32,000 nucleotides of DNA from Kiritimatiella glycovorans (GTDB taxonomy: Bacteria; Verrucomicrobiota; Kiritimatiellia; Kiritimatiellales; Kiritimatiellaceae), in contig NZ_CP010904.1 in assembly GCF_001017655.1 (NCBI RefSeq), positions 1,410,001 to 1,442,000 on the forward strand. Direction: 5' to 3'. Below are positions 8,901-32,000 of this stretch, in pieces. Under the pieces are notes generated by a model, which was not told where the DNA came from, did not search any database, and saw only the letters and a list, made by a program, of their open reading frames with translations. The position numbers and the translations under genes are program-made. Numbering within the stretch: position 1 is the stretch's first letter; each line of letters begins with the position of its first letter.

Positions 8901-9484
8901 GACCGTAAAAAAGGCCTTTCCCATTCCCAGGTCCCGGCGTTCAGGACGTCGAGATGCGTCGACTGAGACGCGTTGGAAATGGTGCCTCCGGCCGAAACGA
9001 TATCGTCGATCAGAGCACCGGTGAGGGTCACGTTGCTGCTTGCACTGTCGATCAGCGTATACGACCCATTCGTCGTCAGATCGGCCATATCGATCATGAC
9101 CGTACCGTCCACCACGTTGGAGTCCGTCGCATTACTCTTGGTCGTGTTGATCGTCGTGACGCTGTCTTCCCCGAGCTGAAAGGACACCGTTCCGTAATCA
9201 TATAATTTGAACAGGGACGCATTGACCGTGGCGTCGGGTTCCAGGATCAGGCTGCCGAACATGTTCTCCGACTCACCGCCGACCGACAGAAAACTGGAGT
9301 TCAGATGACGGTTGTCCATCGTCCCTCCGCTTCGAAGCGTAAGATACCCGTCATACCACTGATTCCCCGCATTACTAATGAACGTTCCGGTCGCCTTCAG
9401 GGTAGCGTTCGAAAGAATCTCGGCATAGCTCGTGCCGGTTCCCTCGACTTCTCCGGAAAAGATATAGGCGAAGGTAATCGAGGA
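8849..9484 (-). pseudogene. Remnant of a PEP-CTERM / autotransporter-repeat type surface protein, lacking both signal peptide and C-terminal anchor
   Basis: The frame is open from 9484 (a TGA lies just upstream at 9487-9485). It contains no ATG/GTG/TTG before the ATG at 9319, yet the upstream part (SSITFAYIFSGEVEGTGTSYAEILSNATLKATGTFISNAGNQWYDGYLTLRSGGT) continues the same T/S/N/G-rich beta-repeat style seen in the intact gene 15396-16769. The 3' end reads into the repeat cluster (..NAGTWEWERPFLRSGRALRARRSSDGSSDG) instead of a PEP-CTERM motif. Confidence 0.6.
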
Positions 9485-9530
9485 TCATAGCACCGCCGCT
9501 GCGGCGTTTCGTCATGCACCATCCGCGGGG

Positions 9531-11162: not shown

Positions 11163-11235
11163 GGGTGGCTCCCTCCTGTGTACCACGTCCTGCCTTCTAT
11201 CGATCCGCGAGATTCCGCGTGTTCCGCCGTGGTCC

Positions 11236-13185: not shown

Positions 13186-13203
13186 GGTTTCACCCCCCTG
13201 CCT

Positions 13204-13252
13204 TTAATTTCACCCTGTGTTCCCGGGATGGGCGCGATTTCCGAGCGCGCCG
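13204..13252 (-). repeat. Third, inverted copy of the REP-like element seen at 8777-8825
   Basis: The reverse complement cggcgcgctcggaaatcgcgcccatcccgggaacacagggtgaaattaa aligns with 8777-8825 cggcgcgctcggagagcacgccctacccgggaacacagaacgaaatcac. Shared blocks are cggcgcgctcgga, cgccc, cccgggaacacag and gaaat. Confidence 0.6.
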
Positions 13253-13317
13253 CTTTTCGGTCGGTTCTGCTGGACAGCAGAATCCCTGCCTTAACATTCC
13301 AACGCCCATCTTCCGGT

Positions 13318-15336: not shown

Positions 15337-15371
15337 AAAAAAAAAGGCCTTCCCCGTCTCCGGGAAAGGCC
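15337..15371 (-). terminator. Rho-independent terminator downstream of the PEP-CTERM gene
   Basis: On the minus strand: ggcctttcccg-gaga-cggggaaggcc (11-bp stem including one G-U pair) followed by a run of nine U. It begins 25 nt after the stop at 15396. Confidence 0.85.
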
Positions 15372-15395
15372 TTTCTACGACTCATACGGTCATGA

Positions 15396-16906: not shown

Positions 16907-18655
16907 TTAATCGAGCGGATAGAACCTGATTTTCTCCAGCATCGGCGGTTCGCCGGTCTCTGCTCTATCTTCGGTCGAGACCGATACGTCAAGATCGCCC
17001 GCCACCAATTGAGTCGGGCCGAAGACCAGGGCGTCGTCGTCCCGCTTGCGCAGCGGGATCTCTTCGCCGGCGATCTCCAGTTGCCATCCGCGCCCGTGTG
17101 CGATGTGCTCGCCCAGGACCCGTATGTCGTAGCGCCCGGCGTGGTCGACGATCACATTGTAGGTCGCTTGGTCGCCGGGTGCGTCGAATCCCCTGACGCC
17201 AAAGAATCCCACCCCGCGCAGCCCGCCCTCGATCCGCTGCGCCATAGCGCCCCACACGGTGTTGTAGCCTGACTGCGGCCGACCAATCTTGACGATCGGC
17301 ATACGAAAGGCGCGGCCGGTGTCGATGATCTCCCCGTAGGTGCGTTCCAGCTCCGCGTCATACCGCGCGGCGATCTCCGGAAAACGCCCGCTCACGTCGG
17401 TCGTCTCGCCGGGGTCGACATCGATATCATAGAGGGCCGTCTCTCCGCCGGCGAAGTTGTGATATTTGAAGCGCGGGCCGCGCAGGGTGACATGCTGTTC
17501 AGCCATCGTGATTTGTCCGGGATCGTTGACGATCCCCTTGCGTCCGCCCGCGGAACCTTCGCCCGAAATCGCGATACGGAACACGGAACGCTCGATCTCT
17601 TCGGCCTCCGGGTTCTCGATGGCATCCCGGACGCTGATTCCGTCGAAGGACCGATGCTCCGGATACTCGGCTTCATCGATCCCCGTCATGTCGAGCAGTG
17701 TGGGGAGGATATCCTCCACGGTGACGAACTGCGGGCGTTCGCCGGGCGGCACGTGACCCGGCCAGCGGACCATCAACGGCACGCGAATGCCGTTGTCCCA
17801 CGCCGTAGCCTTGCTGCCGCGCAGGCCCAGCGGATTGCGGTTCGCGATATCTTCGTCCGTCATGTTCTTATAGGACGGACCGTTGTCGCTCATGAAGAGA
17901 ACGATCGTATCGTCGGCATGGCCCAGCTCCTCGAGCCCGCGCAGCAGCCGCCCGATGGCGTCGTCGAGCTGCGTGACGCATCCGTACACGGCCGCGAGGC
18001 GCTCGGAACACCCCGCGTCGCGGTACGGCTGCGCGAACTCCTCCGCAGGCTCCCACGGCAGGTGCGGCAGGATAAACGCCGTGGTGCACCACCACGGACC
18101 GTCGCCCTTGCGGCGGATGTAATCGAGCGAGGTGTCGACATCCACATCACAGGTCCACCCGACTCGCGGGACCATGCCGGTGTGGGTGATGCTGGTCGCG
18201 TCCTTGTGCACGTATCCGGTGACGTGCGAGGCCTCGTCGCAGCCGCGCTCCCAGGCCTCCATTTCGAGAAGATAAATCCCGTCGCGTTTCCCGAAGTAGC
18301 CCGTGCCGTATCCCGCCGCTTTGAAAAACTCGGGCATCAGGGTCTCATCGCGCATCAGGTTATTTCGAGGCCCGACGCCCCAGACGCCGGCTTTCATATG
18401 ATTGCGGCCCGTCATCAGTGACGCACGCGTCGGCGAACAGGCCGGGGCGACGATGAAGTTCGTGAATAGGGCCGACTGTTCCGCGAGCCGGTCCAGGTTC
18501 GGCGTCCTGACCGTGTCATTGCCCATGAACCCGAAGTCGCCGATCCCCTGGTCGTCGCTGATAATCAGCAGCACATTCGGGTGTTCCCGTTCTGCCGCGC
18601 GACCGAAAACCGAGGCGGTGAAGAGCAGGAGCGAGAGAAGACAGGATTTTTTCAT
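16907..18655 (-). CDS. Secreted Cys-type sulfatase (arylsulfatase-A-like core) with C-terminal CBM-like beta-sandwich; tandem paralogue 1
   Basis: MKKSCLLSLLLFTASVFGRAA signal peptide. PNVLLIISDDQG and APACSPTRASLMTG (Cys codon 18439-18437). The C-terminal ~120 aa (GDQATYNVIVDHAGRYDIRV...) resemble CBM6/35-type modules. Confidence 0.9.
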   Translation of the reverse strand: MKKSCLLSLLLFTASVFGRAAEREHPNVLLIISDDQGIGDFGFMGNDTVRTPNLDRLAEQSALFTNFIVAPACSPTRASLMTGRNHMKAGVWGVGPRNNLMRDETLMPEFFKAAGYGTGYFGKRDGIYLLEMEAWERGCDEASHVTGYVHKDATSITHTGMVPRVGWTCDVDVDTSLDYIRRKGDGPWWCTTAFILPHLPWEPAEEFAQPYRDAGCSERLAAVYGCVTQLDDAIGRLLRGLEELGHADDTIVLFMSDNGPSYKNMTDEDIANRNPLGLRGSKATAWDNGIRVPLMVRWPGHVPPGERPQFVTVEDILPTLLDMTGIDEAEYPEHRSFDGISVRDAIENPEAEEIERSVFRIAISGEGSAGGRKGIVNDPGQITMAEQHVTLRGPRFKYHNFAGGETALYDIDVDPGETTDVSGRFPEIAARYDAELERTYGEIIDTGRAFRMPIVKIGRPQSGYNTVWGAMAQRIEGGLRGVGFFGVRGFDAPGDQATYNVIVDHAGRYDIRVLGEHIAHGRGWQLEIAGEEIPLRKRDDDALVFGPTQLVAGDLDVSVSTEDRAETGEPPMLEKIRFYPLD

Positions 18656-18716: not shown

Positions 18717-20471
18717 TTACCGTGGCGGGGCGAGGTAGATCTTCTGCACCAGGGGCGGATCGCGCTGTTCGCCGCTTCCTTCTACCGTCAGAGTCATCGT
18801 CTGCCGGCCTTCGCCCAAAGTGAACGGGGGAAAGGTCACTTTCTGCGGAGTCGTCGTCTCCGGCCGCACCTCCGTGTCGCCGAATCGAAGCATCCATCCC
18901 CCGCCATGGTCGAGTTGCTTTCCGTCCATCGTGGCGGTGTACTCGCCGCCGCGCACCACCTCAATCGCGTACTCCGCGCGATCTCCGGGCTGGGCGAAGC
19001 CCTTGAGGTAGTGAAAGCCGACGCCTTTCAGGTCTCCGTAGATCTTCTGCGCCATCACCGAGTTAAGCTTATTGTACCCCGGCCGGTAGCGGCCCACCTT
19101 CAGCCACGGCATCCGGTAGGCGCGGCCGGTATCGAGGATCGCTTCGTACTTGTCCTCGAGTTCCGCGGCGTACCGCGCCGCGATTTCCGGGAATTCGTCA
19201 CTCACGTCGACCGTCTCGCCGGGGTCGGCATCGAGGTCAAAAAGTTCCGAAGACCCGTCCGCGTAGTTGTGATATTTGAAACGCGGGCCGCGCAGCGTCA
19301 CGTGCTGTTCACGCATCGAAACTTCGTCGGGATGGTTGACCACCGCCCGGGCGCCGCCGGCGGCGCCTTCGCCCGAGATGGCCACGCGAAACACGGTCCG
19401 CTCGATCTCCGCCGAATCGGGATCCTGCAGGGCGGAGCGCAGACTGACGCCATCCCACGGGTGATGTTCCGGGAACTTCGCCGGATCCAGCCCCGTCAGG
19501 TCCGCCAGCGTCGGCAGGATATCCTCGACCGAGGCAAACTGGGGCCGCGGGCCGGGCTCGATCGTTCCGGGCCAGCGGACCAGCAGCGGCACACGGATCC
19601 CGTTGTCCCACGCCGTGGCCTTGGTTCCGCGAAGTTCGAGTGAATTGCGGCTCTCGATCTCCTCTTCCGTCATGTCCTTGTAGGAGGGCCCGTTATCACT
19701 CAGAAAAACGATGATCGTATCCTCGATGTGTCCCATTTTCTCCAGCTCGCGCAGCAGGTGACCGGTCGCGTCGTCCATCTGCGTAATGCTCCCGTAGACG
19801 GCGGCGAGACGCTCGGAGCAACCCTGTTTGCGGTAGTATTCGGCATAGGTCTCCGGCGGTTCCCACGGCAGATGCGGGATGATGTAAGCCACCGTGCACC
19901 ACCACGGCTGATCGCCCTGGCGGCGAATGTAATCCAGGGCGAAATCGACATTGATATCACACGTCCAGCCCTCGCGTTCGATCACGCCCTCCGGCGTGAT
20001 CATACGAGGGTCGAGATGATCGTAGCCCCAGGGATACTCCGCCTCGTCGCAGCCGCGATCCCAGGGCTTCAGCTCGAGCAGTCCCACGCCGTCGCCCTTT
20101 CCGAAATAGCCGGTGCCGTAGCCGTTGGATTTAAAATACTGCGGCATGAGGATCTCGTCGCGCATGAGATTATTGCGCGGCCCGACGCCCCAGACGCCGG
20201 CCTTCATATGATTGCGGCCGGTCATCAGCGAGCTGCGCGTCGGCGAACAGGCCGGGGCGACGACGAAATTGGTGAAGTGCGCGGACTGTTCCGCGAGCCG
20301 GTCGAGATTCGGCGTCTTCACCGTGTCGTTGCCCATGAACCCGAAATCGCCAATCCCCTGATCGTCGGTAACGATCAACAGGACATTCGGACGGTCTTTC
20401 GCCGCGCGGGCCGTCTGAAGGACTCCGCACAGGACAAGCAACAGAAGAGATTTCAGCACTGTTTTCGCCAT
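18717..20471 (-). CDS. Secreted Cys-type sulfatase with C-terminal CBM-like domain; tandem paralogue 2
   Basis: Trimmed to ATG 20471 (MAKTVLKSLLLLVLCGVLQTARAA signal peptide, GGGAGA upstream). PNVLLIVTDDQG and APACSPTRSSLMTG (Cys codon 20249-20247). Roughly two-thirds identical by eye to 16907-18655. Confidence 0.9.
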   Translation of the reverse strand: MAKTVLKSLLLLVLCGVLQTARAAKDRPNVLLIVTDDQGIGDFGFMGNDTVKTPNLDRLAEQSAHFTNFVVAPACSPTRSSLMTGRNHMKAGVWGVGPRNNLMRDEILMPQYFKSNGYGTGYFGKGDGVGLLELKPWDRGCDEAEYPWGYDHLDPRMITPEGVIEREGWTCDINVDFALDYIRRQGDQPWWCTVAYIIPHLPWEPPETYAEYYRKQGCSERLAAVYGSITQMDDATGHLLRELEKMGHIEDTIIVFLSDNGPSYKDMTEEEIESRNSLELRGTKATAWDNGIRVPLLVRWPGTIEPGPRPQFASVEDILPTLADLTGLDPAKFPEHHPWDGVSLRSALQDPDSAEIERTVFRVAISGEGAAGGARAVVNHPDEVSMREQHVTLRGPRFKYHNYADGSSELFDLDADPGETVDVSDEFPEIAARYAAELEDKYEAILDTGRAYRMPWLKVGRYRPGYNKLNSVMAQKIYGDLKGVGFHYLKGFAQPGDRAEYAIEVVRGGEYTATMDGKQLDHGGGWMLRFGDTEVRPETTTPQKVTFPPFTLGEGRQTMTLTVEGSGEQRDPPLVQKIYLAPPR

Positions 20472-20505
20472 TACAACATTCTCCCTGTTTGTTCGATGTG
20501 CCGAT

Positions 20506-21341
20506 TCATCGCAACCCCGGCGCCCAGTCACTGTTCGGATCACCGATAAAAAGCTGTCGCCGGCCCTCCAGCGACTGGATGCGCGGATCGGTATAGTGAA
20601 GCGCCTCCACAGGTCCGTCGAAAAAGAGCGCGTTCGCATGGCAGTCCGTCATGTTTCGCATCGATCCTTCGGGGCGGGGGTGACGAAATCATAAAAAGCC
20701 GTACCCGTCGTAGTCGTCCATGTTCGGCATCGGCCCTCCGCGAATAAAATTATACCAGACCGGCGCCAGCCGGAAGTCCCCGAGGTAGTCGCCCGCTGCG
20801 CTCCGCAAACTGTTTCCCGAATCCGCCATCACCACGGTTTCTCCGGGCCGGGGAATGGCAAGCAGGCGTTTTCTCTGCACATGGTACGATCCGTCGGACA
20901 GTTGCCGTACTGCACCAGGCCGTAATTCATACCGTAATCGGGATTGACCCAGTGCCAGTGGGAAAGGCCCTTGCCGTGATCCCGCCCGTCCCGCGCGGTC
21001 AGAGGACAGTAGAAGTATTTGCTTCGCCCATAGCGTGTGTCGACGTAGCCCGCCTCCCAGAAAGCTTCAAACCAGGTGGGCATATCGGGATCGTTCTGTT
21101 TCCAGGCGGGCATATACCCGTCATGATCGGTGACATACATTAGAAACATTTCGCCCAGGTGACTCAGGTGCGAGGTACACTGGGTCGCCAGCGCGCGATT
21201 GTGGGCCTTGCCGATCATCGGCACGAGGATCGTCATCAGGATGCCGATCACCGCGATCACGACCAGCAGTTCGATCAGGGTGAACGCTTTCAGGGTTCTC
21301 TTTTCCCCGAACGACTCCGACTGCACACATCCTTCCATCAT
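20506..21341 (-). pseudogene. Prepilin-type N-terminal cleavage/methylation protein of the DUF1559 / H-X9-DG class, disrupted by one frameshift and one in-frame TGA
   Basis: Piece 1 (21341 to ~20900) reads MMEGCVQSESFGEKRTLKAFTLIELLVVIAVIGILMTILVP ... DYGMNYGLVQYG. Piece 2, shifted by one base (track ORF 20689..20880), reads ..RKRLLAIPRPGETVVMADSGN.. Piece 3 is in the same frame as piece 2 but follows TGA 20691-20689; it reads FRHPRPEGSMRNMTDCHANALFFDGPVEAL...* and ends at 20506. Together these give the normal domain order of this family, about 278 codons. Confidence 0.75.
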
Positions 21342-23059
21342 CGCTCCATCCAGATCACCCGCACCTCTGGCGGGGCAAGGTTCAATGCAAGAGTATACCC
21401 CTCGAGGGTACGCCGGATCGACCCCGCCTCCCCCTCCAGCGGCTGGAGGGTCAGCGAATCGATCCACTGCTGATGATACGTCTCCAGCTTATCGCCGACG
21501 AGTCCCTCCGCCGGACGACCCTTCCCCATCTCGCGCACCCCGCCCAGCCGGTCGGGGCGTTCGACGAAGCGGTCCACCAGCAGCCCGGCGGCGGCGAGAT
21601 CGTCGCGAATGCGATCGTGCACGGCCGTCTCGCGGTCCAGTACGACCGTGGATCGCCTCATCCCGCGCAGGTCGGCGACTTCGGCGGGGACCTGAAACAC
21701 GACCTCCTCCATCTCATCGACATCGGTCTTCCGGTTGTACGCGGCAAACACGAACAACGCCCAGTCGTCCCCCACACTCAAAAAGCCCAGGTGATCAGTC
21801 CGGTGCATCGAAGAGAACAGCGGCTCGAGCAGATAGGACTCGCCGCCGACCCCGCGTTCGAGGACGGAGAGCAGCCAGGCGTGGCCTGTGAACAGGTGCT
21901 TCATCCGGGCGCGCCGGTCCCGAAAGCGATCGGCCATCTCCCAGTGAAAGAGGCGGTCGATGCCCGCCTCGCGCAGGCGAAGCGTCATCTGGGCGGTGAG
22001 CGCCGCCCCGAGGGCACCGTACTCTTCGCTGACAAACGCCCCGCGCCGTTCTTCACCGAAGGGCGCCACATCAAATTCGTGAATCTCGCGCGAGAATTCG
22101 AGCGAAGGGAATCTCCGCTCGAATTCCTCCCAGATCTGATAACACCCCCGGGCGCTGGCATGCACGTCCGTATCCGGCGAGTAGTAGCGCGAAAAGGCCA
22201 CCCAGTCGAACGGCGTCCCGCGCGCACCGTTGAAGGTGTTCGGCTCCGTCCGGCAATGTTCGGCGAGGGCGAGGGCATTCACGTTCTGCTTCGGGAAATG
22301 ACGCAGATTGGCGCCGGAGATATTGTACGGCCCGAAATCCGCGCCGGGGAGGACGGTCTTCACCGCGACCGCCGCGGCGTCGTAGTGCCGCACAAATTCT
22401 TCATGCGTCCCGCCGAAGCGCTCGAGCCCGTTGTTCTCAGTCCCGACGCGGAATCGGAGCTGATTGGCCTTTTCAGCACCGAGGATGCGTTCCAGTTCCC
22501 GGCAGAATACGACGATGAAGTCGTGCCATTCCTTCGGATCCCGAGGGGGCTCGTACTGACCCAGCCCCACCGCATTCGGATCTTCGGGAAAACACCACGG
22601 CACGTTATCGAGCACGATTGTGAAGCTCGAGTAGCCGCAGTCGAGATACGGGCGCAGACGCGGCTCGAGCAGCTCCATGCGGTAGCGGATATCCCCCCGC
22701 TCGTCGCGCCGGGCCAGATCGCGTGCACGAACGGCGGGATCGCCCTCGCCCTCTTCGCTGCCGTCGTTGAAGCCGCCCAGAATGCGCACCATGCTCAGGT
22801 GATCCGCGAAGGGCACTTCGCGCGGATAGGGTTTTTTCGCATACGGGAAATCGCTCTTCAGGACGTAATCGGGAATCTCGATCAGGGCCTGCCCCACCTC
22901 ATGGAACGGGCCGAGCGCCGGGCTGTAGCGCCAGAAGGCGTCCAGCTCGCCGAGCGGCTTGCAGAGCGGGGCGGCGGACGAGGCCGTCGCGAAAGCCCCC
23001 ATCATCAGCAGCGCCGCCGTACGCCGGACGCCTACCGTATTCCGATTCATCCGCAACAT
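21338..23059 (-). CDS. Secreted putative glycoside hydrolase, unclassified TIM-barrel-like family (paralogue A)
   Basis: 573 aa with signal peptide MLRMNRNTVGVRRTAALLMMGAFATASSAAP. Conserved blocks shared with 28722-30572 and 30632->32000: IPDYVLKSDFPYAKKPYPREVPFADHLSMVRILGG, LDNVPWCF, PPRDPKEWHDF, LRFRVGTENNG (Glu codon 22438-22436), REIHEFD (Glu codon 22078-22076) and C-terminal DSLTLQPLEG. Confidence 0.7.
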   Translation of the reverse strand: MLRMNRNTVGVRRTAALLMMGAFATASSAAPLCKPLGELDAFWRYSPALGPFHEVGQALIEIPDYVLKSDFPYAKKPYPREVPFADHLSMVRILGGFNDGSEEGEGDPAVRARDLARRDERGDIRYRMELLEPRLRPYLDCGYSSFTIVLDNVPWCFPEDPNAVGLGQYEPPRDPKEWHDFIVVFCRELERILGAEKANQLRFRVGTENNGLERFGGTHEEFVRHYDAAAVAVKTVLPGADFGPYNISGANLRHFPKQNVNALALAEHCRTEPNTFNGARGTPFDWVAFSRYYSPDTDVHASARGCYQIWEEFERRFPSLEFSREIHEFDVAPFGEERRGAFVSEEYGALGAALTAQMTLRLREAGIDRLFHWEMADRFRDRRARMKHLFTGHAWLLSVLERGVGGESYLLEPLFSSMHRTDHLGFLSVGDDWALFVFAAYNRKTDVDEMEEVVFQVPAEVADLRGMRRSTVVLDRETAVHDRIRDDLAAAGLLVDRFVERPDRLGGVREMGKGRPAEGLVGDKLETYHQQWIDSLTLQPLEGEAGSIRRTLEGYTLALNLAPPEVRVIWMER

Positions 23060-23074
23060 CCTTGGCTCACAGGG

Positions 23075-24577
23075 TTACTCCAGAGGAGGGACCTTCGGCC
23101 CCATGTTGAACAGCAGGTCGGAGTTATCCTCCGGCACGTCATAGCGTCTCCGCAGTTCGACCAGTTTACGCGTGAGACGCTGGATGAGTTCCGGCGACGC
23201 CTCCTCGTAAAGGTTATGCATCTCGTCGGGGTCTTCCTGCAGATCGTACAGTTCCCAGTACTCCTTGCGCGGCGCGCTTCGGGGGTGCATGAAGCGGATT
23301 AATTTATAGCGGTCCGTGCGCACCCCCTCGTGGGGCGTATGACCCCAGCCCGGGTGATAGTACCGGTAGTAGACTGCTTCCCGCCAGGTCCCGCCGTCGA
23401 CCGAGGCATCGACCAGCGGGCGCAGGCTCCGACCCTGCATATCCGCCGGACACTCCACTTCGGCGAAATCGAGCACGGTCGGAGCAAAGTCGATGTTCAT
23501 GGCGAGATCGTCGACCACCGACCCCGGCTGGATTACGCCGGGATAGCGCATCAGCAGTGGGGTGCCGAAGGATTGCTCGTACATGAGGTGTTTGCTGTAG
23601 AACCCGTGTTCGCCGAGGAAATACCCCTGATCGGACGTGAAGATCACGAGTGTGTTTTCGCCCAGCCCCGACTCGTCCAGGTAGTCGAGGAGACGGCCCA
23701 TCTGATCGTCGATCGATGCAACCGTGCGCAGGTAGTCTTTGACGTAACGCTGATAGATCCATCCGCGCATCCGGGCCTTGTTCAGCCCTTCGGGAAGGAT
23801 GCGCTCCGGCCCGCCGTGGCGAGCGGCCCAGCCTTTCTCGTACTTCCAGATCCCCTCGGGGTCGAGGGTCGTCTCCACATGTTCCAAGGGAGGCGTACGA
23901 TGCGAAAGATCCTCATTCAGCGTCCCGGGTTCCGGAAGCCTACGCCCTTCAAACAGCCCGGCGTACTGCTGCTCGTACTCCCATTGCGAATGCGGCGCCT
24001 TGTGTCCGATCTGCAGATAGAACGGCTTGCCCGGATCGCGACCGTTCCGCATCCATTCGATCGCATCCTCAGTAACGACCCGGGTCACATAGCCCGACCG
24101 CCGGATTTTGCCGGCGGGGGTCAGAAATTGGGGATTGGAATACGCCCCCTGCCCCGGCAGCACCTGCCAATGATCGAAGCCGGTCGGCTCCGTATGCAGG
24201 TGCCACTTGCCGATCATGGCCGTCTGGTATCCGGCCCTGCGCAGGTATTTCGGCAGCGTCGGCTGCGAACCGTCAAAATCCGCCCAGTTATCCGGCACGC
24301 CGTTCAGATGCGCATACTTGCCGGTCAGGATCGCCGCGCGGCTGGGCGAGCAGAGACTGTCGGTGACGAAACAGTGATCGAAGCGCGCGCCCTGCTCCGC
24401 CATCCGGTCGAGCCGGGGCGTGTCCAGCAGGGCGTCGCCGTAGCAGCCCATCGCCTTGTGCGCGAGATCGTCGCAGATCACCAGGATCACATTCGGACGC
24501 GGGCGCTCGGCCGACATGCCCGCGCCGCGTCCTATCAGAACGAACGACATAAGGACGGATACGAAAACCTCTCTCAT
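23075..24577 (-). CDS. Secreted Cys-type sulfatase, N-acetylglucosamine-6-sulfatase-like, with DUF4976-like C-terminus
   Basis: Trimmed to ATG 24577 (MREVFVSVLMSFVLIGRGAG). PNVILVICDDL and SLCSPSRAAILTGKYAHLNG (Cys codon 24352-24350). The C-terminal ELYDLQEDPDEMHNLY block is typical of these sulfatases. The start overlaps the upstream stop by 1 nt (TGATG). Confidence 0.9.
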   Translation of the reverse strand: MREVFVSVLMSFVLIGRGAGMSAERPRPNVILVICDDLAHKAMGCYGDALLDTPRLDRMAEQGARFDHCFVTDSLCSPSRAAILTGKYAHLNGVPDNWADFDGSQPTLPKYLRRAGYQTAMIGKWHLHTEPTGFDHWQVLPGQGAYSNPQFLTPAGKIRRSGYVTRVVTEDAIEWMRNGRDPGKPFYLQIGHKAPHSQWEYEQQYAGLFEGRRLPEPGTLNEDLSHRTPPLEHVETTLDPEGIWKYEKGWAARHGGPERILPEGLNKARMRGWIYQRYVKDYLRTVASIDDQMGRLLDYLDESGLGENTLVIFTSDQGYFLGEHGFYSKHLMYEQSFGTPLLMRYPGVIQPGSVVDDLAMNIDFAPTVLDFAEVECPADMQGRSLRPLVDASVDGGTWREAVYYRYYHPGWGHTPHEGVRTDRYKLIRFMHPRSAPRKEYWELYDLQEDPDEMHNLYEEASPELIQRLTRKLVELRRRYDVPEDNSDLLFNMGPKVPPLE

Positions 24578-27225
24578 CACCGCCCCTCTCCTTCTGAAGC
24601 CGGGAGCACGCGCAGTTCCATCGGCCAGCCGCACAGTCCGCTCTTGTTCGGGTTGGCCCCTTGTTCGACAAAGACGGCGATCAGATTATTCGCCCCGTAT
24701 TGGAGCAACTCCGCCGGCACGCGGTAGCGGAATGTTTTGGGTCGGGAAGGAATTTGCTCCAGCTCGGTCTCGTTGACGTACACGGTCGGATAACCGTCGA
24801 TCTCGCCGAAGAACAGCTCGGCGTCATGCCCATCCCATACCGTCGGGACGAGCACGTGCTTCCGGTACCACAGCGGGCCCTCTGAGTTCTCGAACCCCTC
24901 ACAGCGCTGCCAGCGCCGCGGGAGGCGTCGTATGGGCCAGCGTCCGTCGCGGTCGTTGATCTCCATCGACGCCCCCTCGAGCCCCTCTTCGTGCTCATGC
25001 ATGCACCACGTCCCTCGCAATTTAATGGCTTCTTCAACGAGGACCGGGATCTCGGCATAAAAGATCGGGCTGTGTTCGGGAATGATCTCCGCCCGTATGG
25101 TGTGACGCCCGTAATCGAGTTCCGCGGTCGCCTCCCAGGAGACTTTTACGTCCGCTTCGCTCCCGGCGGGAACGTGCAGCGTATGCACGGCTTTTTCGAC
25201 TCTCAGTCCGGCCGGAGTTTCCACCCTGACTTTACAGTTCTCTTCGGTCTGCTTTTCGTTGCGCACCACGAGCCGATGACAGGCGAAGGTCCCGGACTCG
25301 ATCGGGCGGGAGGTGTCGTACACCCCGGGGGCCCAGCGCGCGACCGTCGGCCGCCTCAGTTCAAGGGTCCGCATCGGACCCATGGACCGCGGCTGCCCCT
25401 TGCCGTCCCTGCTGTAGAGCATATACCGGATCGTCCCGGTGCGGTTCCCGCGCAGCTCGCGGGGCTCAAGGGTCAATGTTCCGCGGCTGACTTCGAATCG
25501 CTGCGGAGCGAGGTCAGGTGCAGCGAACACCACGGCCCCGAGATCGTCTCTCCCCCCGTTGCGCACCTCAAGTTCCAGCGCATCCCCGTTGACCGCAACC
25601 CGCATCGGAGGTTGTGTGATCCCGAACGGCAGGGTTTTCGTCATTTCGATCTCGACGACGTGATCTCCTTCGAGTTGACGGGGAAGAATATTGATCGACG
25701 GTTTGCCGTCGATCTTGAATGAAGCGACTCTCGTCCCCTCGCCCCGGACCCGAAAGGTCCATGTGGCTTTTCCATACGGAAATCCCGCGATCTCAAATCC
25801 TCCGGCGAACTCTTCCGGCACGGAGGGTTCAATCAGCATTCCCTGCGGCAGGGCCTCCGCTCCCAGCAGGCCCTGGTAGACGTTCAGCAGAAAGGCCGTG
25901 CAGGACCAGAGCTGAGGATATTTTCCGCGCGGGTCCCCGTCAAACAGCCCCCACATCTCACTCATCGTATGATGGAACGCCCCGTCCCAGGTCAGCAGCG
26001 CCAGGGTCTTGACCATGCGTTCCGGGTTGTCGGCGCGCGCATTCGCCGCGCCCCAGAAGCCGTCCATCATCGGCCACACGTTCTGGTCATGGTAGGCCCC
26101 GCGATTCAGATACGGCGGATAGGTCAGCGGCGCACCCCAGGGCGTGTCAGGCACATGGTCGATGATCGACTCCACGCGTGCCGGATCGTTGATCCCGTTC
26201 CAGAGCAACGCGAAGCTGTTGCCGGATAGCGTCGACCGGCCCAGGGGCTCGGTATCGCGCCCCATTTTGAGCAGAGAAAAGAACCGCTTTTCCTCCAGCC
26301 AGAGTTCGCGGTTGACCGCGTCTTTCAATGCGTAGGCGCGACGGCGGTAGCGCTCCGCCTCTTCGACCGGACGCCCGATCCAGTCGGCGATCTCCCCCAG
26401 CACAAGCTGCGTGCGGTAATGAATGAAATTCACACTGCTGCCCTTGAGGTCGGTGCGGCCCGTGGCGCCTTCCGGGTAAATGCTGCCGCCGTCGCCGATC
26501 GTTTCGCCCCCGTGGTAAAGTCCGTCGTACGGATCGAAATGCAGAGACCTTACCAGCTCCGCACTGTGGGTCATCTCGACGTAATGGTCTTTCAGAAACT
26601 GAACATCTCCGCTCGCCAGCGCGTACTGCCAGGCCCCCTCAATCCAGATCAGAAAATCGGTCATGCTGTAGCGGTTGTCCACGGTCGGGAAATTGATGTG
26701 GAACCCGACGATCCCGTACATCTGCTCCGGCTTGATGCCCTCGCCCTTGTGCAGACACCATTCGAGACTTTTCCGCGCGCCTTCCTGGAAGAGCGGCAGG
26801 CTGCCCATAACCGAGTAGGCCGTGTCACGCACCCAGAGAGGACGGCCCTCGGAGGCGTTGAACAGACCGACCGTACTCTCATTCGGCCAGGCGTAATCGA
26901 GGTGGACAAGGATGTTGTCCATGGCCAGATTGTAAACCGCATCGACGATCGGGTACTCGCTGCGGAAGGAGGGATACGGCGAGAGGTCGTGCTGCGGCGT
27001 CCATTCCGCCGGCCGCTCCGGCTTGCGGTTGAAACGAAATTCCGCCTCGGAGACGAGCGCCCCGGTATCCGGATCGAGATAGGCGCGCTTCCCGTCCCGC
27101 GTCACCGACGTCTGATACACCGTGAAGGCGTCCGATTCGTAAAATGCGCGCTCATCGTCCGCCGCAAAAACAACCGCTGCGGTCAGTACCGACAGAAACA
27201 TCACCCCGGAAACAAGCTGCCTCAT
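24577..27225 (-). CDS. Secreted multidomain six-hairpin (alpha/alpha)6 glycoside hydrolase (GDE_C / GH63 / GH78-like core) with Ig-like repeats and C-terminal galactose-binding-like domain
   Basis: Trimmed to ATG 27225 (MRQLVSGVMFLSVLTAAVVFAADD, SD AAAGGGAGGGG). Core motifs are RGAYHDQNVWPMMDGFW and YPQLWSCTAFLLNVYQGLLG (compare YHNG..WPW and QAWS in six-hairpin glycosidases). The C-terminal block EGPLWYRKHVLVPTVWDGHDAELFFGEIDGYPTVYVNETEL resembles the GH2 sugar-binding jelly-roll. Confidence 0.7.
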   Translation of the reverse strand: MRQLVSGVMFLSVLTAAVVFAADDERAFYESDAFTVYQTSVTRDGKRAYLDPDTGALVSEAEFRFNRKPERPAEWTPQHDLSPYPSFRSEYPIVDAVYNLAMDNILVHLDYAWPNESTVGLFNASEGRPLWVRDTAYSVMGSLPLFQEGARKSLEWCLHKGEGIKPEQMYGIVGFHINFPTVDNRYSMTDFLIWIEGAWQYALASGDVQFLKDHYVEMTHSAELVRSLHFDPYDGLYHGGETIGDGGSIYPEGATGRTDLKGSSVNFIHYRTQLVLGEIADWIGRPVEEAERYRRRAYALKDAVNRELWLEEKRFFSLLKMGRDTEPLGRSTLSGNSFALLWNGINDPARVESIIDHVPDTPWGAPLTYPPYLNRGAYHDQNVWPMMDGFWGAANARADNPERMVKTLALLTWDGAFHHTMSEMWGLFDGDPRGKYPQLWSCTAFLLNVYQGLLGAEALPQGMLIEPSVPEEFAGGFEIAGFPYGKATWTFRVRGEGTRVASFKIDGKPSINILPRQLEGDHVVEIEMTKTLPFGITQPPMRVAVNGDALELEVRNGGRDDLGAVVFAAPDLAPQRFEVSRGTLTLEPRELRGNRTGTIRYMLYSRDGKGQPRSMGPMRTLELRRPTVARWAPGVYDTSRPIESGTFACHRLVVRNEKQTEENCKVRVETPAGLRVEKAVHTLHVPAGSEADVKVSWEATAELDYGRHTIRAEIIPEHSPIFYAEIPVLVEEAIKLRGTWCMHEHEEGLEGASMEINDRDGRWPIRRLPRRWQRCEGFENSEGPLWYRKHVLVPTVWDGHDAELFFGEIDGYPTVYVNETELEQIPSRPKTFRYRVPAELLQYGANNLIAVFVEQGANPNKSGLCGWPMELRVLPASEGEGR

Positions 27226-27252
27226 TGAACCCCTCCCTTTTATAGTCGCTGA

Positions 27253-27281
27253 AAGATAACGAAACGTTACCGTCGAGTCAA
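27253..27281 (-). promoter_or_regulatory. Candidate sigma70 promoter of the long minus-strand operon, with a palindromic operator-like site in the spacer
   Basis: Minus-strand TTGACT (27281-27276), a 17-nt spacer and TATCTT (27258-27253), about 28 nt upstream of ATG 27225. The 13-bp palindrome TAACG-AAA-CGTTA (27257-27269) overlaps the -10 element and spacer. Pattern match only. Confidence 0.45.
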
Positions 27282-27406
27282 CCGCTCCTGTCTCAACTTC
27301 AATATTCAAGTCAAAGAGCATCCTTGAGAAGCAAAACGGACCGCAATATGGCACCTCTGATGAGTGACCCTTTTATCCATACTGAAATTCTGTGATAGTT
27401 CGTTTC

Positions 27407-28384
27407 ATGAACGATTCAAACGGAATCCGCTGGGGCATCATCGGCTGCGGCCTGATCGCGCCGAAGTTTCACCGCTCGCTCTTAAACACCGGAGAGGGAC
27501 GCGTTGTCGCCGCGGCATCCAAGTCGATGCGCCGGGCGCGTCGGCTGGGCGACAAGACGGGCATCCCGCATCTCTACGACTCGTACTCCCGCATGCTTGA
27601 AGAAGAGGATCTCGATGCGGTCTATATCGCCACCACGCACAACGTCCACGCGGATCATGCCCTGCTCTGCCTGGAGCGCGGCATCCCCGTGCTGGTCGAA
27701 AAACCCCTGACCCACCATGCCAGCGACGCGGAACGGCTGATCCGGACGGCCCGCGCGCGGAAGGTTTTCGCCATGGAGGCGATGTGGACCCGTTTCAATC
27801 CCTCGTCAATCCGGCTTCAGCAGGTGCTCGCGGACGGCGTCATCGGCGAGGTCCAACATATGAAAGCGGAGTTCTGCGTCAGGATGCCGCTGCTTGCGCC
27901 GAAAATGATGCCCTGGAACCGGATGTACAGTCCCCGCCTCGCGGGCGGGGCCCTGCTTGATCTTGGGGTCTACCTGGTGGCCTATGCGCGGATGATATTC
28001 GGGCGCGATCCTGAAACGGTCGAGTCTTCGATCACGCCTGCCTGGACGGGCGTCGATAAGACCACCGCTGCACGGTTCCGCTATCCGGACGGCGCGGTGG
28101 CCGAATGGCGATGCTCGTTCCGGGAAGCGCGACCGCGCGATGTGGTTCTCACCGGTACGCGGGGAACGATCCATGTATCCCTTTTCACCGGCGCGGATCA
28201 GTTCACGATCTCTCGGGACGGCGAAGAGGACTCGGTCATTCATTGCGAGAAATCCGGTTTTGAACACGAGATCCGCGAGGTCCATCGCGACCTTCGCGAG
28301 GGCCGAACCGAGAGCGAACGGATGCCGCTCCAGGAGTCTCTCGAAATAGCGCGCACGATGGGCCGCGTGCGATCGTCCGCGTGA
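27407..28384 (+). CDS. Gfo/Idh/MocA-family NAD(P)-dependent oxidoreductase (dimeric dihydrodiol / sugar dehydrogenase-like), cytoplasmic
   Basis: Rossmann N-terminus IRWGIIGCGLIAPKF, DAVYIATTHNVHADHALLCLERGIPVLVEKPLT with the EKP motif, and a C-terminal oligomerisation domain. ATG 27407 is preferred; the track uses GTG 27392. No signal peptide. It is one of only four plus-strand genes in the window and the only one in its downstream half. Confidence 0.85.
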   Translation: MNDSNGIRWGIIGCGLIAPKFHRSLLNTGEGRVVAAASKSMRRARRLGDKTGIPHLYDSYSRMLEEEDLDAVYIATTHNVHADHALLCLERGIPVLVEKPLTHHASDAERLIRTARARKVFAMEAMWTRFNPSSIRLQQVLADGVIGEVQHMKAEFCVRMPLLAPKMMPWNRMYSPRLAGGALLDLGVYLVAYARMIFGRDPETVESSITPAWTGVDKTTAARFRYPDGAVAEWRCSFREARPRDVVLTGTRGTIHVSLFTGADQFTISRDGEEDSVIHCEKSGFEHEIREVHRDLREGRTESERMPLQESLEIARTMGRVRSSA

Positions 28385-28423
28385 ACGCGAGACCGAAGAA
28401 GGGTTTGCAGCCGCGCCGCGCGT

Positions 28424-28723
28424 CTGCCCCGGCAGGCCAGGCGCGTGAAGATAACGGCCCTGGGCCTGCTTCGCAGGCCTGCGGACCTACTACGAACGTT
28501 AAGTGCGCGCGTGTGATGAAACGTTCGTAGTAGCGCCGTAAGCCTGCCCCGCAGGCAAGGCGCGTGAAGACAACGGCCCTGGCCCCGCTGCGCGGACCTG
28601 CGGACCTACTACGAGCGGGAGGAAAAGTTCGTAGTAGCGCCGTAAGCCTGCCCCGCAGGCCAGGCGCGTGAAGATAACGGCCCTGGTCCTGCTTCGCAGG
28701 CCTGCGGGCCTACTACGAGCGTT
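28424..28723. repeat. Tandem array of three highly structured GC-rich repeat units between convergent genes
   Basis: The core ctgccccgcaggc[c/a]aggcgcgtgaaga[t/c]aacggccctgg..cctgcgg.cctactacga.cg occurs at 28424-28500, 28544-28617 and 28648-28723. Units 2 and 3 also share the 20-nt 5' extension ttcgtagtagcgccgtaagc (28524 and 28628), giving ~94-nt units with a 104-nt period. Each full unit is closed by tcgtagtag / ctactacga and contains internal hairpins such as gcctgc-ccc-gcaggc and cctgc-ttc-gcagg. Confidence 0.8.
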
Positions 28724-30572
28724 AAGGGTGTTCGATCGCGATCGCCTTGACCGAGCCGGGGATCATTTCGAAGGTGAATGTATACTCATCATTCCCGCGC
28801 TCCAGGACACCCTCGAACGGCTTCAGGGTGAGCGAGTCTACCATGCGTTCACGATAGACGGGAAAGTTCGCACGCAGACAATCGATGACCTCCCCGCGCT
28901 TTTCCCGATCGGAGATCTCATAGATCCCGGCCAGCAGATCGTCATAGCGAGCATGGCCCGGGGCCAGCAGGCCCCGCTCCTCAAAATCTTTGCGGATCTC
29001 GCGATAGACGGAATTCTTCTGCGTAAGTTCAACCTGTCCGGCGAGGGTCTTTTTCGGGTTACCCGGAAACAGCCGGGCCGGGATCGTCACAGAGAGTTCG
29101 CGCGGGGTGAAATAACCCCGGTCGGCGTGGAAGGCGGAGGCGATCAGGTAGGTATGCCCCCGGCGCGTCGTGAAAAGAATCTTGTAGACCGTCCCGTCGG
29201 CGCCGGCGGGGACATCGAAAACCCACGCCTCGCCGCCCTGGGCGTAATCGAGGATGGAGTAGAGCCATCCGTTGCTCTTGAGCAATGCGTGCGTCACCCG
29301 TCCCGTACTCTTTTCGGCGCTTCCGTCGAGGCCGCCCTTAAAACTCTCCAGCACGCCCCAATGCCAGATCCCCTCGATGGCGGGGACCTCCTCCTTCATC
29401 TCCACGAGCGTGTGAAAGGTCCATGCCGCCCCGCGTCCGCCCGGTTCACAGGTGCGCAGGACGCTGCCGACCCCGGGCATGGCCTTCTCGGTGGGATCGG
29501 TCTGTTCGCTGCACAGGTGTCCGAACTGAAAGCAGTACTTCGGAAGATCGGCGTACTGCCGGTGCGGACCGATCATATTGCGGTACGAATCTCGGTTGGC
29601 ATCCACACGTTCGGAGGGCCACGCGCATCCGACCAGCTTTCCGTTCTGATAACGCGGCACCGAGTGCGACGAATTGGCGATAAAGTCGAGCGGGGCGCCG
29701 ATTTCGCCCGTGGCGTAGTTGGCCCCGGTCGCGCAATGTTCGACGAACCTGATGTAGTCGACGGCGGGCGGTTCGACCCCGCGGGTGTGGATCGGGCCCC
29801 CGAATTCGCCCGGACCGAAGCGCGCCCCGGGCAGCACCTTCTTCACCGCGGCGGACGTGAAGTCGTACCACCGGATCCACTGCTCGTGCGTGCCGTCGAA
29901 GGTATGGGCGTCGCCCGGCTTCTGGCCGTTGTTCTCGGTCCCCATCCGAAACGTCCAGCGATTCGGCAGATCGTAGCCGTAGAGATCGATCATGTGGTTG
30001 CAGAGCGCTTCGATAAAACGGCCCCACTCCTCGTAATCCCGCGGCGGCGCGATCTGTCCGTAAGCCCCGGTCGATTCGTAGGCCTGCATCGCATAGGGCA
30101 CGTTGTCGAGCGAGATGATGATGTCGCGGTAGCCCATCTCGAGGTAGGGGTTCAGTCGCTTTTTCACCCACTCGAACCGGTACTGCAGTTCGCCGTTTTC
30201 ATCCTCGTACGCGAGATCCAGCTTCGCCGGCTCATCGAATCCGGACTGACGCGCCCACGCCTTCTGATAGCCGCCGCAGAAACGGACGATCGAGATCGTG
30301 TCGACAAACGGGATCTCTTCTTCATAGGGCCGTTTACGATACGGAAACGACGTCTCGAACATGTACTCGGGAATCGTGACCAGCCCCTGCCGAAGGCTCG
30401 TGAGGTGGCCCTGAAGCTGGTGACCGCGGTAAAACCCGTCCCACTTCCCGATCGACGCGGCGTCTTCAAAATCCGCGCGGACCTCGCGAACGTCGCGGGC
30501 GCCGGTCAAAGACGCCGGAAGAAGGGTCAGCAGCAGAGCGGCGACCATCCATGATATGGCGCGGTGTTTCAT
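28722..30572 (-). CDS. Secreted putative glycoside hydrolase, unclassified TIM-barrel-like family (paralogue B)
   Basis: Trimmed to ATG 30572 (MKHRAISWMVAALLLTLLPASLTGA, SD GGGAGGA). Shares IPEYMFETSFPYRKRPYEEEIPFVDTISIVRFCGG, LDNVPYAM, PPRDYEEWGRF, WTFRMGTENNG (Glu codon 29936-29934) and DSLTLKPFEG with paralogues A and C. Confidence 0.7.
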   Translation of the reverse strand: MKHRAISWMVAALLLTLLPASLTGARDVREVRADFEDAASIGKWDGFYRGHQLQGHLTSLRQGLVTIPEYMFETSFPYRKRPYEEEIPFVDTISIVRFCGGYQKAWARQSGFDEPAKLDLAYEDENGELQYRFEWVKKRLNPYLEMGYRDIIISLDNVPYAMQAYESTGAYGQIAPPRDYEEWGRFIEALCNHMIDLYGYDLPNRWTFRMGTENNGQKPGDAHTFDGTHEQWIRWYDFTSAAVKKVLPGARFGPGEFGGPIHTRGVEPPAVDYIRFVEHCATGANYATGEIGAPLDFIANSSHSVPRYQNGKLVGCAWPSERVDANRDSYRNMIGPHRQYADLPKYCFQFGHLCSEQTDPTEKAMPGVGSVLRTCEPGGRGAAWTFHTLVEMKEEVPAIEGIWHWGVLESFKGGLDGSAEKSTGRVTHALLKSNGWLYSILDYAQGGEAWVFDVPAGADGTVYKILFTTRRGHTYLIASAFHADRGYFTPRELSVTIPARLFPGNPKKTLAGQVELTQKNSVYREIRKDFEERGLLAPGHARYDDLLAGIYEISDREKRGEVIDCLRANFPVYRERMVDSLTLKPFEGVLERGNDEYTFTFEMIPGSVKAIAIEHP

Positions 30573-30631
30573 TTTATCCTCCCAGGATTCTTTTTCGTTC
30601 TTTATACAGAACCTCGTCGCGGCCAGCAAAT

Positions 30632-32000
30632 TTACCGGAACACCACGACTGTTACAGACGGGCATTCCGCGTGGAATGTAACCATGGTGCTGCCGGGATC
30701 GCCGCCGAACCACTGGCGCCAGACAGGGGCCCCCTCCTCCACCACGGCCATGCCGTCGAACGGGACCCGCGTCAGCGAATCCTTCATCATGCCGAGATAG
30801 CGGTCCCAGTTCTTTCGGACAAACGTCCGGCCCTCTGCGCGGTCTGCAGCCATCACGGTATAGCCGCCTTCCGAGACCACGGTCGCCGGTTCTCCGCGGT
30901 GTTCCCTGTGTTTCTCCGAGAGCAGGCCCGCGGCCTCCAGGTCGCGGCGGATCACGTCATAGACCGAGGTCTCACGGTTGAAGACCAGTTGCTCCGCAGC
31001 CTTCAGCCGCGTCGGGAGAACCTCGCCCGGAAGGTCGACGATCAGTTCGCCGGATTCATGTTTTTCCCGATCGACGTTCCAGTTCGCGACCACGAGAATC
31101 GCTTCGTCGCGTTTTACCGAGAGCATGGCTTTCTGCGTATGGCCGTGATCTTCGGACGCGGTGACCGGAACGGTGTAGAGCGCGCCTCCGCGCATCCGTT
31201 CAAACACGTGATACAGCCAGGCGTGCCCCTGCATCAGGACGTGATCGCCATCGATCCACTCAAAGATGCCCCAGTGCCAGAGGCGATCGCAGCCGACTTC
31301 CTTCATCTCCGCTATGGTATGCAGATTCTGGGCGGCCCCGCGCGCGCCGGTATCGAGTCCGTAGACGCCGCCCTCGGTGTTCAGGTGCGGTCCGTACTCA
31401 TGCACTTCGCGCGAGATACCCTCGTGCTTCGGCGCAATACCTTCGATCGTCTCCCACAACCGCTCGAATTCCGGCACACGCTGATCGGGATGGATGTTGC
31501 CGAATTTGCCGGGCTTGGGATTGCTGGAGAAGTAGTAGAACGACCGCGCGAGGAAGTCGAACGGGGCCCCGATCTCTCCGGTGGCGCGGTTGGTGCCGTT
31601 CGCGCAGTGCTCGGCCAGATCGAAGATGCTGACGTTCCCTTCGACCAGGCCCTCGAAGGTATCGAAGTTCCCGTGCGGCATCGACCGGTTGAACGGCCCG
31701 AACTTCGCCCCGGGCAGGACCTCCTTCACGGCGGCCGCGGCGTGGTCATAGGTCTGCAGGAACTCCTCATACGTCCCGTCGAAGCGCCGCCGATCCTGCA
31801 TCTCGGTTCCCATGCGGAACCGGAGACGGTTCGCGTACGAAGCCCCGTAGAGCCGCTTCAACTCCAGGCACATCTCGCGGATAAAGGTCTGCCATTCATT
31901 GAAATCGGACGGCGGAGCGGCCTGTCCGTACGTCCCCTTGCGAGGTTCGTCGGGCAGGCAGTAGGGGACGTTGTCGAGCACGAGTGTGAGGTCATATCCG
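30632..32000 (-). CDS. Putative glycoside hydrolase, same unclassified family (paralogue C); N-terminus beyond the window end
   Basis: The track ORF starts at an internal GTG (31981), but the frame stays open to 32000 (..GYDLTLVLDNVPYC, matching GYRDIIISLDNVPY in B). Motifs: PPSDFNEWQTF, LRFRMGTEMQD (Glu 31804-31802), REVHEYG (Glu 31399-31397) and DSLTRVPFDG. It sits 59 nt upstream of paralogue B. Confidence 0.7.
   Translation of the reverse strand, partial: GYDLTLVLDNVPYCLPDEPRKGTYGQAAPPSDFNEWQTFIREMCLELKRLYGASYANRLRFRMGTEMQDRRRFDGTYEEFLQTYDHAAAAVKEVLPGAKFGPFNRSMPHGNFDTFEGLVEGNVSIFDLAEHCANGTNRATGEIGAPFDFLARSFYYFSSNPKPGKFGNIHPDQRVPEFERLWETIEGIAPKHEGISREVHEYGPHLNTEGGVYGLDTGARGAAQNLHTIAEMKEVGCDRLWHWGIFEWIDGDHVLMQGHAWLYHVFERMRGGALYTVPVTASEDHGHTQKAMLSVKRDEAILVVANWNVDREKHESGELIVDLPGEVLPTRLKAAEQLVFNRETSVYDVIRRDLEAAGLLSEKHREHRGEPATVVSEGGYTVMAADRAEGRTFVRKNWDRYLGMMKDSLTRVPFDGMAVVEEGAPVWRQWFGGDPGSTMVTFHAECPSVTVVVFR

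Follow-up and report, generated by a model that had tools for sequence, protein, structure and literature searches.

The 32,000-nucleotide stretch of the Kiritimatiella glycovorans genome analyzed here (contig NZ_CP010904.1, positions 1,410,001 to 1,442,000; hereafter, the window; G+C content 62%) carries three related genes, denoted A, B and C, in the vicinity of four genes for S1 sulfatases (s1 to s4). We find that the products of these genes represent a deep, biochemically uncharacterized branch of proteins that is remotely related to glycoside hydrolase family 39 (GH39) within clan GH-A. We consider it likely that A and C are retaining glycosidases that function together with sulfatases, and that B either employs a non-canonical mechanism or has no hydrolytic activity. 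Within the known GH39 and clan GH-A framework, the family is marked by a Thr-Glu hallmark at the acid/base site and includes a Gln-type clade in which the nucleophilic Glu is replaced, the latter being the most interesting point of the analysis.

Three ancient paralogs

A, B and C are all encoded on the minus strand, at the coordinates reported in the preliminary description of this DNA (Table 1). Pairwise BLASTP comparisons align them over essentially their full length, with 39% identity between A and C (E = 9e-73), 33% between B and C (E = 9e-69) and 30% between A and B (E = 2e-72). The motifs quoted in the preliminary description, namely, LDNVP, PPRD..EW, FR[VM]GTE and the C-terminal DSLT, are all present, B and C indeed form a tandem, with C located 59 nt upstream of B, and the junctions of A with the adjacent genes were reproduced (see below). 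Given these E-values, motifs and junctions, the original observation stands, far beyond chance.

The proposal that the family was locally triplicated, or expanded inside the locus, does not hold. The closest relatives of A are proteins from Kiritimatiellales metagenome-assembled genomes (MAGs; 61-62% identity), that of B is protein P0105 (69%), and that of C is the product of the gene directly upstream of P0105 on metagenomic contig L008 (52%), in which the C-then-B tandem is retained. Each copy is thus closer to orthologs in other organisms than to the other two copies, which rules out a recent local triplication. A fourth paralog (AKJ63685.1) is encoded elsewhere in the K. glycovorans genome. 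In an average-linkage clustering of the family, which is not a phylogeny, A and B belong to different old clusters and the fourth paralog to yet another one. Judging from these comparisons, A, B and C are ancient paralogs.

Arrays of diverged tandem paralogs are common in the family, with up to four genes in a Lentisphaerae MAG (L039, 8087-16094). A Pontiellaceae contig (L013, 618-13586) combines A-type, C-type and Gln-type paralogs, three to four in all, with a sulfatase gene. One family member, the 1140-aa protein P0160, consists of two family domains fused head to tail.

Relationship to GH39

The only Pfam family matched by the three proteins is PF01229 (Glyco_hydro_39), with scores of 61.8 bits for B, 34.4 bits for C and 23.8 bits for A (gathering threshold, 26 bits); 44 of the 61 family members searched match this profile at E <= 1e-3. 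The sole match in NCBIfam is NF042992, the equivalog model of a GH39 alpha-1,4-L-rhamnosidase (A, 37.9 bits; B, 43.5 bits; C, 51.4 bits), which is also the best NCBIfam match for 60 of the 61 members (best E-value in the family, 6e-21; positions 59-225 of 471 aligned). These scores are far below the equivalog cut-off of 850 bits, and the family proteins are, on this sequence measure, not members of the equivalog. Sequence searches of the PDB, started from single proteins or from the family profile, retrieved only GH39 beta-xylosidases and alpha-L-iduronidase, in alignments that span the acid/base region and pair FRVGTENN with FEVWNEPN. When a 61-sequence alignment of the family was compared with seven canonical 'WNEP' GH39 proteins using hhalign, the match (probability 99.2%, E = 1.5e-19) extended over 415 columns, reaching into the C-terminal domain, and paired E208 of A with the acid/base Glu of the canonical NEP motif and E328 with the canonical nucleophile.

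Thus, the family cannot be called unclassified, as it had been in the preliminary description: B and C exceed the PF01229 cut-off, the hhalign match is confident, and RefSeq names B, as well as AKJ63685.1, 'GH39 family glycosyl hydrolase'. The Pfam, hhalign and Foldseek results rule out both a new fold and a family that cannot be classified. It had also been anticipated that a full-length match to a characterized family would make these proteins ordinary members of that family. The match to GH39 is indeed confident, but the PF01229 match is partial and no close characterized member was found. B and the fourth paralog are labeled 'Beta-xylosidase' in UniProt, and A is a 'hypothetical protein' in RefSeq; the labels of A and B are uninformative and are probably incorrect.

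A profile search that exhaustively covered 1.84 billion cluster representatives yielded 268 clusters at 50% identity with full-length matches at E <= 1e-30. With looser cut-offs, the number increased to 567 (1e-10) and 1415 (1e-3), the latter merging into canonical GH39. A third, profile-based search for homologs added a single fragment (P0290) and did not retrieve the rhamnosidase of Formosa discussed below.

Predicted fold and catalytic residues

Confident AlphaFold models built on family alignments were obtained for A (predicted local distance difference test score 94.4, predicted template modeling score 0.91) and for B (90.8 and 0.90, respectively). Both consist of eight beta/alpha units followed by a beta-rich C-terminal domain, and in Foldseek searches of the PDB, GH39 structures, led by xylosidases and alpha-L-iduronidase, occupy the first 23-24 places for both proteins (E-values of 1e-15 to 1e-20), followed by GH51, GH30, GH79 and PslG. 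The (beta/alpha)8 glycosidase-type barrel of GH39-like architecture with a C-terminal beta domain, originally suggested by eye, is therefore borne out, and the combined sequence and structural evidence indicates that both the fold and the family relationship are of the GH39 type. In the model of A, strand beta-4 comprises residues 202-205, with E208 located immediately after it, and beta-7 comprises residues 323-331, including E328. The placement of carboxylates on beta-4 and beta-7 of the TIM barrel that is typical of clan GH-A would fit A according to this model and, as far as the alignment can tell, C, for which the catalytic positions were placed by alignment rather than by modeling. In the model of B, a Glu is found only on the beta-4 side, and beta-7 contains Q349. 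Hence, of the two conserved Glu positions initially described, both are present in A and C, but B has Gln at the second one.

To assess conservation of these sites, 291 proteins (288 retrieved ones plus A, B and C) were aligned to the family hidden Markov model (HMM); 285 of these cover the acid/base site. The acid/base position (208 in A) is Glu in all 285. Thr occupies the preceding position (207 in A) in 250 proteins and Asn in no more than 20, among them seven canonical GH39 proteins, so that Thr-Glu in place of Asn-Glu, already noticed in the three copies, is a true hallmark of the clade. The nucleophile position (328 in A) could be compared in 276 proteins, with Glu in 212 and Gln in 62. 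Further motifs that are almost invariant include LDN(V/I)P, which follows beta-3, (R)E(I/V)HE(F/Y)G on beta-7, and HW, which follows beta-8. In clan GH-A, the Asn that precedes the acid/base residue normally reads O2 of the sugar. The change from Asn to Thr may alter the reading of the sugar 2-position, and the smaller side chain would fit an axial or substituted 2-position.

The Gln-type clade

Strand beta-7 of B carries the motif KYCFQF, in which Gln349 takes the place of the Glu found in A and C. The motif Y-x-F-Q-(F/S/Y)-G is present in all 33 proteins of the B clade (P0105-P0142); because the Gln is conserved throughout this clade, a sequencing error is ruled out. The acid/base Glu, LDNVP and HW are all retained in the B-clade alignments examined. 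A Glu located seven residues past the Gln (E356 in B) is invariant in the B clade (33/33) and is present in 141 of the 211 Glu-type proteins and in 9 of the 28 other Gln-type proteins. The Gln-type proteins outside the B clade include distant relatives with an 'EIHQFG' motif, in which the acid/base site is mostly Asn-Glu ('FKIGNEY'; P0184, P0210, P0255, P0259-P0264, P0276, P0281 and others). Given that the EIHQFG proteins and the B clade are both Gln-type, loss of the nucleophilic Glu is either recurrent or ancient in the superfamily.

Gln-type genes are found next to Glu-type paralogs in the window and in L008, and L013 also combines the two types. Five glycan-degradation loci (L006, L007, L047, L048 and L049) each contain a lone Gln-type gene, which rules out an obligate pairing of the two types.

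Association with sulfatases

Among 43 non-redundant loci from other genomes, an S1 sulfatase is encoded within 10 kb of the family gene in 25 and directly adjacent to it, on the same strand, in 15. By a rough estimate, adjacency would be expected by chance in about 5% of cases, even in a genome as rich in sulfatases as that of K. glycovorans, which encodes 56 of these enzymes in 2.95 Mb (PMC5148204). The tight linkage to sulfatases proposed for the window was thus found both here and elsewhere.

The sulfatases themselves also recur. Orthologs of s1 (44-45% identity) are encoded in the operons of A orthologs in L003 and L004, orthologs of s4 (68-70%) come immediately after the A-clade genes of L012 and L013, and orthologs of s3 (49-60%) adjoin family genes in L019, L023 and L029. 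For s1, phmmer identified the N-acetylglucosamine-6-sulfatase of B. thetaiotaomicron (5g2v; E = 5e-119) as the closest solved relative, followed by a mucin-desulfating sulfatase (7p24; E = 2e-115); we take these entries to belong to subfamily S1_11. The best solved relatives of s4 are distant, namely, 6hhm, deposited as 'Arylsulfatase' and presumably a sulfatase of an ulvan locus, and iduronate-2-sulfatase. For s3, no close characterized relative was found.

Within the window, A probably belongs to a 12-kb operon, in which the transcription unit would extend from the promoter-like site (around 27250-27280) to the terminator at 15341-15376, as judged from the gene arrangement and these predicted signals. 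The order of elements is promoter-like site, a gene for an exported protein of about 880 aa, s1, A, a gene for a small protein with a prepilin-type motif, s2, s3, a PEP-CTERM protein gene and the terminator. The gene of the 880-aa protein is joined to s1 by a TGATG stop/start overlap (24575-24579). As noted originally, the start codon of A lies 15 nt after the stop codon of s1, and the A stop codon overlaps the start of the prepilin-motif gene as ATGA. The C and B genes form a separate unit, split off by a gene of the GFO/IDH/MocA family on the opposite strand.

Comparison with characterized GH39 enzymes

The GH39 beta-xylosidases used for comparison, XynB1 of Geobacillus stearothermophilus (2bs9/1w91) and the enzymes of T. 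saccharolyticum (1px8) and Dictyoglomus (6yyh), share with the family the (beta/alpha)8 barrel and C-terminal beta-sandwich, have the acid/base Glu of beta-4 and the nucleophilic Glu of beta-7 in aligned positions, and are its best Foldseek matches. The family differs from them in the low identity (11-16%), in HMM-level similarity that does not extend beyond some 90-165 residues in the beta-3 to beta-5 region, and in an extra conserved N-terminal segment, 'IPDY..FPY.K.PY..E.PF.D'. Further differences are Thr-Glu instead of Asn-Glu-Pro, the Gln at the nucleophile position of B, and the linkage of the genes to sulfatases.

The GH39 alpha-L-iduronidases (human IDUA, 4kgj; a bacterial ortholog, 5ndx) have the same fold and catalytic layout as the family. 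By analogy, IDUA may also be comparable in context because it acts on sulfated glycans alongside sulfatases, and the family-linked s4 is distantly related to iduronate-2-sulfatase; unlike IDUA, however, the family has the Thr-Glu motif, identity is only 11-14%, and no sign of uronic-acid recognition was found. The endo-alpha-1,4-L-rhamnosidase encoded in the ulvan locus of Formosa agariphila (NF042992) likewise targets a sulfated glycan of algae, works alongside sulfatases, and has been described by reviewers as an atypical GH39 enzyme (PMC8360166). The A, B and C proteins differ from it in the low scores and limited profile coverage given above. PslG, the GH39 endo-glycosidase of Pseudomonas aeruginosa (5bx9/4zn2), which uses a clan GH-A barrel to act on a bacterial exopolysaccharide, is among the structural matches, but is a weaker one (E-values of 1e-10 to 1e-11, template modeling (TM) scores of 0.42-0.46), has an NE motif, and shows no counterpart to the long C-terminal domain arrangement of the family.

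Proposed function and alternative explanations

Most likely, A and C would be exported retaining exo-glycosidases of the GH39 type, with the Glu after beta-4 (E208 in A), within the Thr-Glu motif, as the putative acid/base and the Glu at the end of beta-7 (E328 in A) as the putative nucleophile. A sulfated heteroglycan would be attacked at the level of its oligosaccharides, from which these enzymes would trim the terminal sugar; the co-transcribed S1 sulfatases, including the N-acetylglucosamine-6-sulfatase relative encoded upstream of A, would remove sulfate before or after this step. Candidates for the removed sugar, by comparison with GH39 substrates, are beta-D-xyloside, alpha-L-iduronide and alpha-L-rhamnoside. 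Rhamnose is weakly favored by several hints. The model that scores best in NCBIfam is that of a rhamnosidase, genes for a class II aldolase and an FGGY kinase adjoin an A ortholog (L003), an FGGY kinase gene adjoins a B-clade gene (L006), and rhaM, the gene for a rhamnose mutarotase, is located near a Gln-type gene (L049). In addition, the 880-aa protein encoded upstream of s1 contains a weak rhamnosidase-like six-hairpin region, and rhamnosidases of families GH78 and GH106 dominate the CAZy counts of K. glycovorans (PMC5148204). Alternatively, the distant similarity of s4 to iduronate-2-sulfatase weakly suggests a 2-O-sulfated sugar of the xylose or iduronate type.

Several observations weigh against the assignment of A and C as GH39-type partners of sulfatases. 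The PF01229 match covers only profile positions 66-229 of 472, and A remains below the threshold that B and C exceed; the structural similarity to GH39 is moderate (TM scores of 0.51-0.59 on query length, 11-16% identity). Not every A-clade gene has a sulfatase in its neighborhood; exceptions are found in Coraliomargarita, a planctomycete-like genome and a Hydrogenedentes MAG. The neighboring glycosidases differ between loci (GH31, GH28, GH3, GH97 and GH2), so that no single substrate emerges. In the searchable literature, no paper was found that mentions the A, B or C proteins or a 'GH39-like' family, and no member was found to be characterized.

The same evidence can be read as that of ordinary GH39 beta-xylosidases, with A, B and C set apart by sequence drift alone. 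Such a reading would account for the PF01229 scores of B and C, the database names, and the predominance of GH39 xylosidases among the structural matches, and it agrees with dbCAN-based work on verrucomicrobial fucoidan loci, in which GH39 genes are presumed to encode xylosidases. Nevertheless, we consider it quite unlikely, given the partial PF01229 match, the low identity to the solved xylosidases, the replacement of the NEP Asn by Thr in most of the family, the lack of the nucleophile in B, and a best NCBIfam match that is a rhamnosidase model, scored far under its cut-off. At the opposite end, the Thr-Glu clade could be a functionally new glycosidase group, with a CAZy subfamily or family of its own, that acts on sulfated or 2-substituted sugars and in which the Gln-type clade cleaves without the canonical Glu nucleophile; we regard this bolder proposition as unlikely. 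If it is true, Gln-type cleavage via Glu356 or through substrate participation would be a change of mechanism within a GH39-type scaffold.

For B, the loss of the nucleophile argues against ordinary retaining hydrolysis and the retained acid/base residue against a purely binding role, leaving either a non-canonical route or no hydrolysis. Retaining glycosidases normally lose their activity when the nucleophilic Glu is changed to Gln. B could thus be a non-catalytic pseudo-enzyme, a glycosidase-derived glycan binder with the role of presenting substrate to C or A, or of sequestering it for them, and the retention of the C-then-B tandem in L008 speaks for such a role; the invariance of an acid/base Glu that would not be needed for binding alone, and the frequent lack of a Glu-type paralog near B-clade genes, make this explanation a tentative one. 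Equally tentative is the possibility that the B clade is active with a relocated carboxylate, Glu356 serving as the nucleophile or as a general base, in which case the stereochemical outcome could switch, as it is known to do within GH97. Conservation of the Gln through the whole clade together with the acid/base Glu, LDNVP and HW, the invariance of the +7 Glu, compared to its presence in about two-thirds of the Glu-type proteins, and the presence of B-clade genes in glycan-degradation loci that contain no Glu-type partner all favor this route. Yet, the same Glu is found in most of the Glu-type members, so there is no specific compensation, and the other Gln-type ('EIHQFG') clades mostly lack it. 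Much less probable is neighboring-group participation by the substrate itself in the Gln-type proteins, which would dispense with an enzymatic nucleophile; the participating group could be a 2-acetamido group or, on manno-configured sugars such as alpha-L-rhamnosides, the 2-hydroxyl, as in the 1,2-anhydro mechanism of GH99. The combination of a lost nucleophile and a kept acid/base, the replacement of the O2-reading Asn, the resemblance of the adjoining sulfatase to N-acetylglucosamine-6-sulfatase, the rhamnose-related genes near family members (rhaM in L049, an FGGY kinase in L006, aldolase II with FGGY kinase in L003) and the rhamnosidase model as the best NCBIfam match are all in line with participation. 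The argument is, however, purely inferential, the assisting Asp/Asn pair of substrate-assisted families was not identified, and the context genes are heterogeneous.

Other features of the locus

In database searches, A matches best a K. glycovorans protein with 100% identity, encoded on a contig of 2.95 Mb; the RefSeq start of the gene is three codons downstream, giving a 570-aa product. The predicted architecture of A is a signal peptide followed by the (beta/alpha)8 barrel and a C-terminal beta-sandwich. Two long open reading frames on the plus strand opposite A and B (21473-23302, 609 aa, and 28668-30554, 628 aa) have no homology support and are typical artefacts of high G+C content.

The protein of about 880 aa contains a weak six-hairpin glycosidase-like region (MGH1-like or rhamnosidase six-hairpin) and a GH2_N-like sugar-binding domain, with no confident family assignment. 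Its sequence matches in the PDB, to galactosidases and to carbohydrate and sialate esterases, are limited to the sugar-binding-like domain at the C-terminus. This protein is a further candidate for an uncharacterized glycosidase. In L003 and L004, the corresponding slot, upstream of the sulfatase-sulfatase-A-ortholog block, is taken by a GH31 gene encoding a PA14 domain (1-6306 and 4135-6756, respectively); a GH31 gene is also found beside the family gene in L048 (8579-10519). Genes for the prepilin-motif protein and the PEP-CTERM/PATR protein are embedded in the same sulfatase and glycosidase transcription unit as A, and a PATR protein is also encoded near the A ortholog in L004. The remainder of the window (2123-15156) is one long glycan-degradation cluster on the minus strand.

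Table 1. Annotated features of the window (positions are those of the 32,000-nt stretch)
Feature	Positions	Strand	Remarks
AraC-type regulator	2123-3166	+	
GH127-like protein	3173-5581	-	with NPCBM domain
GH9-like protein	6865-8718	-	
S1 sulfatase s4	9531-11471	-	
GH32 protein	11236-13185	-	
Alpha/beta-hydrolase or esterase-like protein	13318-15156	-	
Intrinsic-terminator-like hairpin	15341-15376	-	strong; 16-bp stem and T run
PEP-CTERM/PATR-repeat exported protein	15396-16769	-	last gene before terminator
S1 sulfatase s3	16907-18655	-	
S1 sulfatase s2	18717-20639	-	paralog of s3
Small protein	20829-21341	-	prepilin-type N-terminal methylation motif
Copy A	21338-23059	-	573 aa; AKJ64479.1, RefSeq 'hypothetical protein'
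Copy A, putative nucleophile E328	22078-22076	-	
Copy A, putative acid/base T207-E208	22441-22436	-	
S1 sulfatase s1	23075-24577	-	directly upstream of A
Exported protein, about 880 aa	24577-27225	-	first gene of probable operon
Promoter-like site	27253-27281	-	upstream of the 880-aa protein gene
GFO/IDH/MocA oxidoreductase	27392-28384	+	between the C-B pair and the A-containing operon
Copy B	28722-30572	-	616 aa, same start as in RefSeq; AKJ64483.1, 'GH39 family glycosyl hydrolase'
Copy B, Glu356	29507-29505	-	invariant within B clade
Copy B, Gln349	29528-29526	-	codon CAG; nucleophile position, end of beta-7
Copy B, putative acid/base T212-E213	29939-29934	-	retained
Copy C	30632-32000	-	N-terminus cut by window end; 455 codons visible
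Copy C, VHEYG motif	~31405	-	putative Glu nucleophile
Copy C, GTE motif	~31810	-	

Implications

Few marine carbon pools are as recalcitrant as the sulfated glycans that come from algae, mucus and microbial mats. Bacteria of the Planctomycetes-Verrucomicrobia-Chlamydiae group, such as Kiritimatiella, encode dozens of sulfatases, for which the partner glycosidases are largely unknown. The GH39-related Thr-Glu clade delineated here encompasses at least 268 clusters at 50% identity and lies next to sulfatase genes in a third of the loci, across Kiritimatiellales, Verrucomicrobiota, Planctomycetota and some Bacteroidota, which makes it a testable candidate for the missing exo-glycosidase step. Within it, the conserved Gln of the B clade provides a defined test case for distinguishing a pseudo-enzyme from an altered mechanism in clan GH-A.

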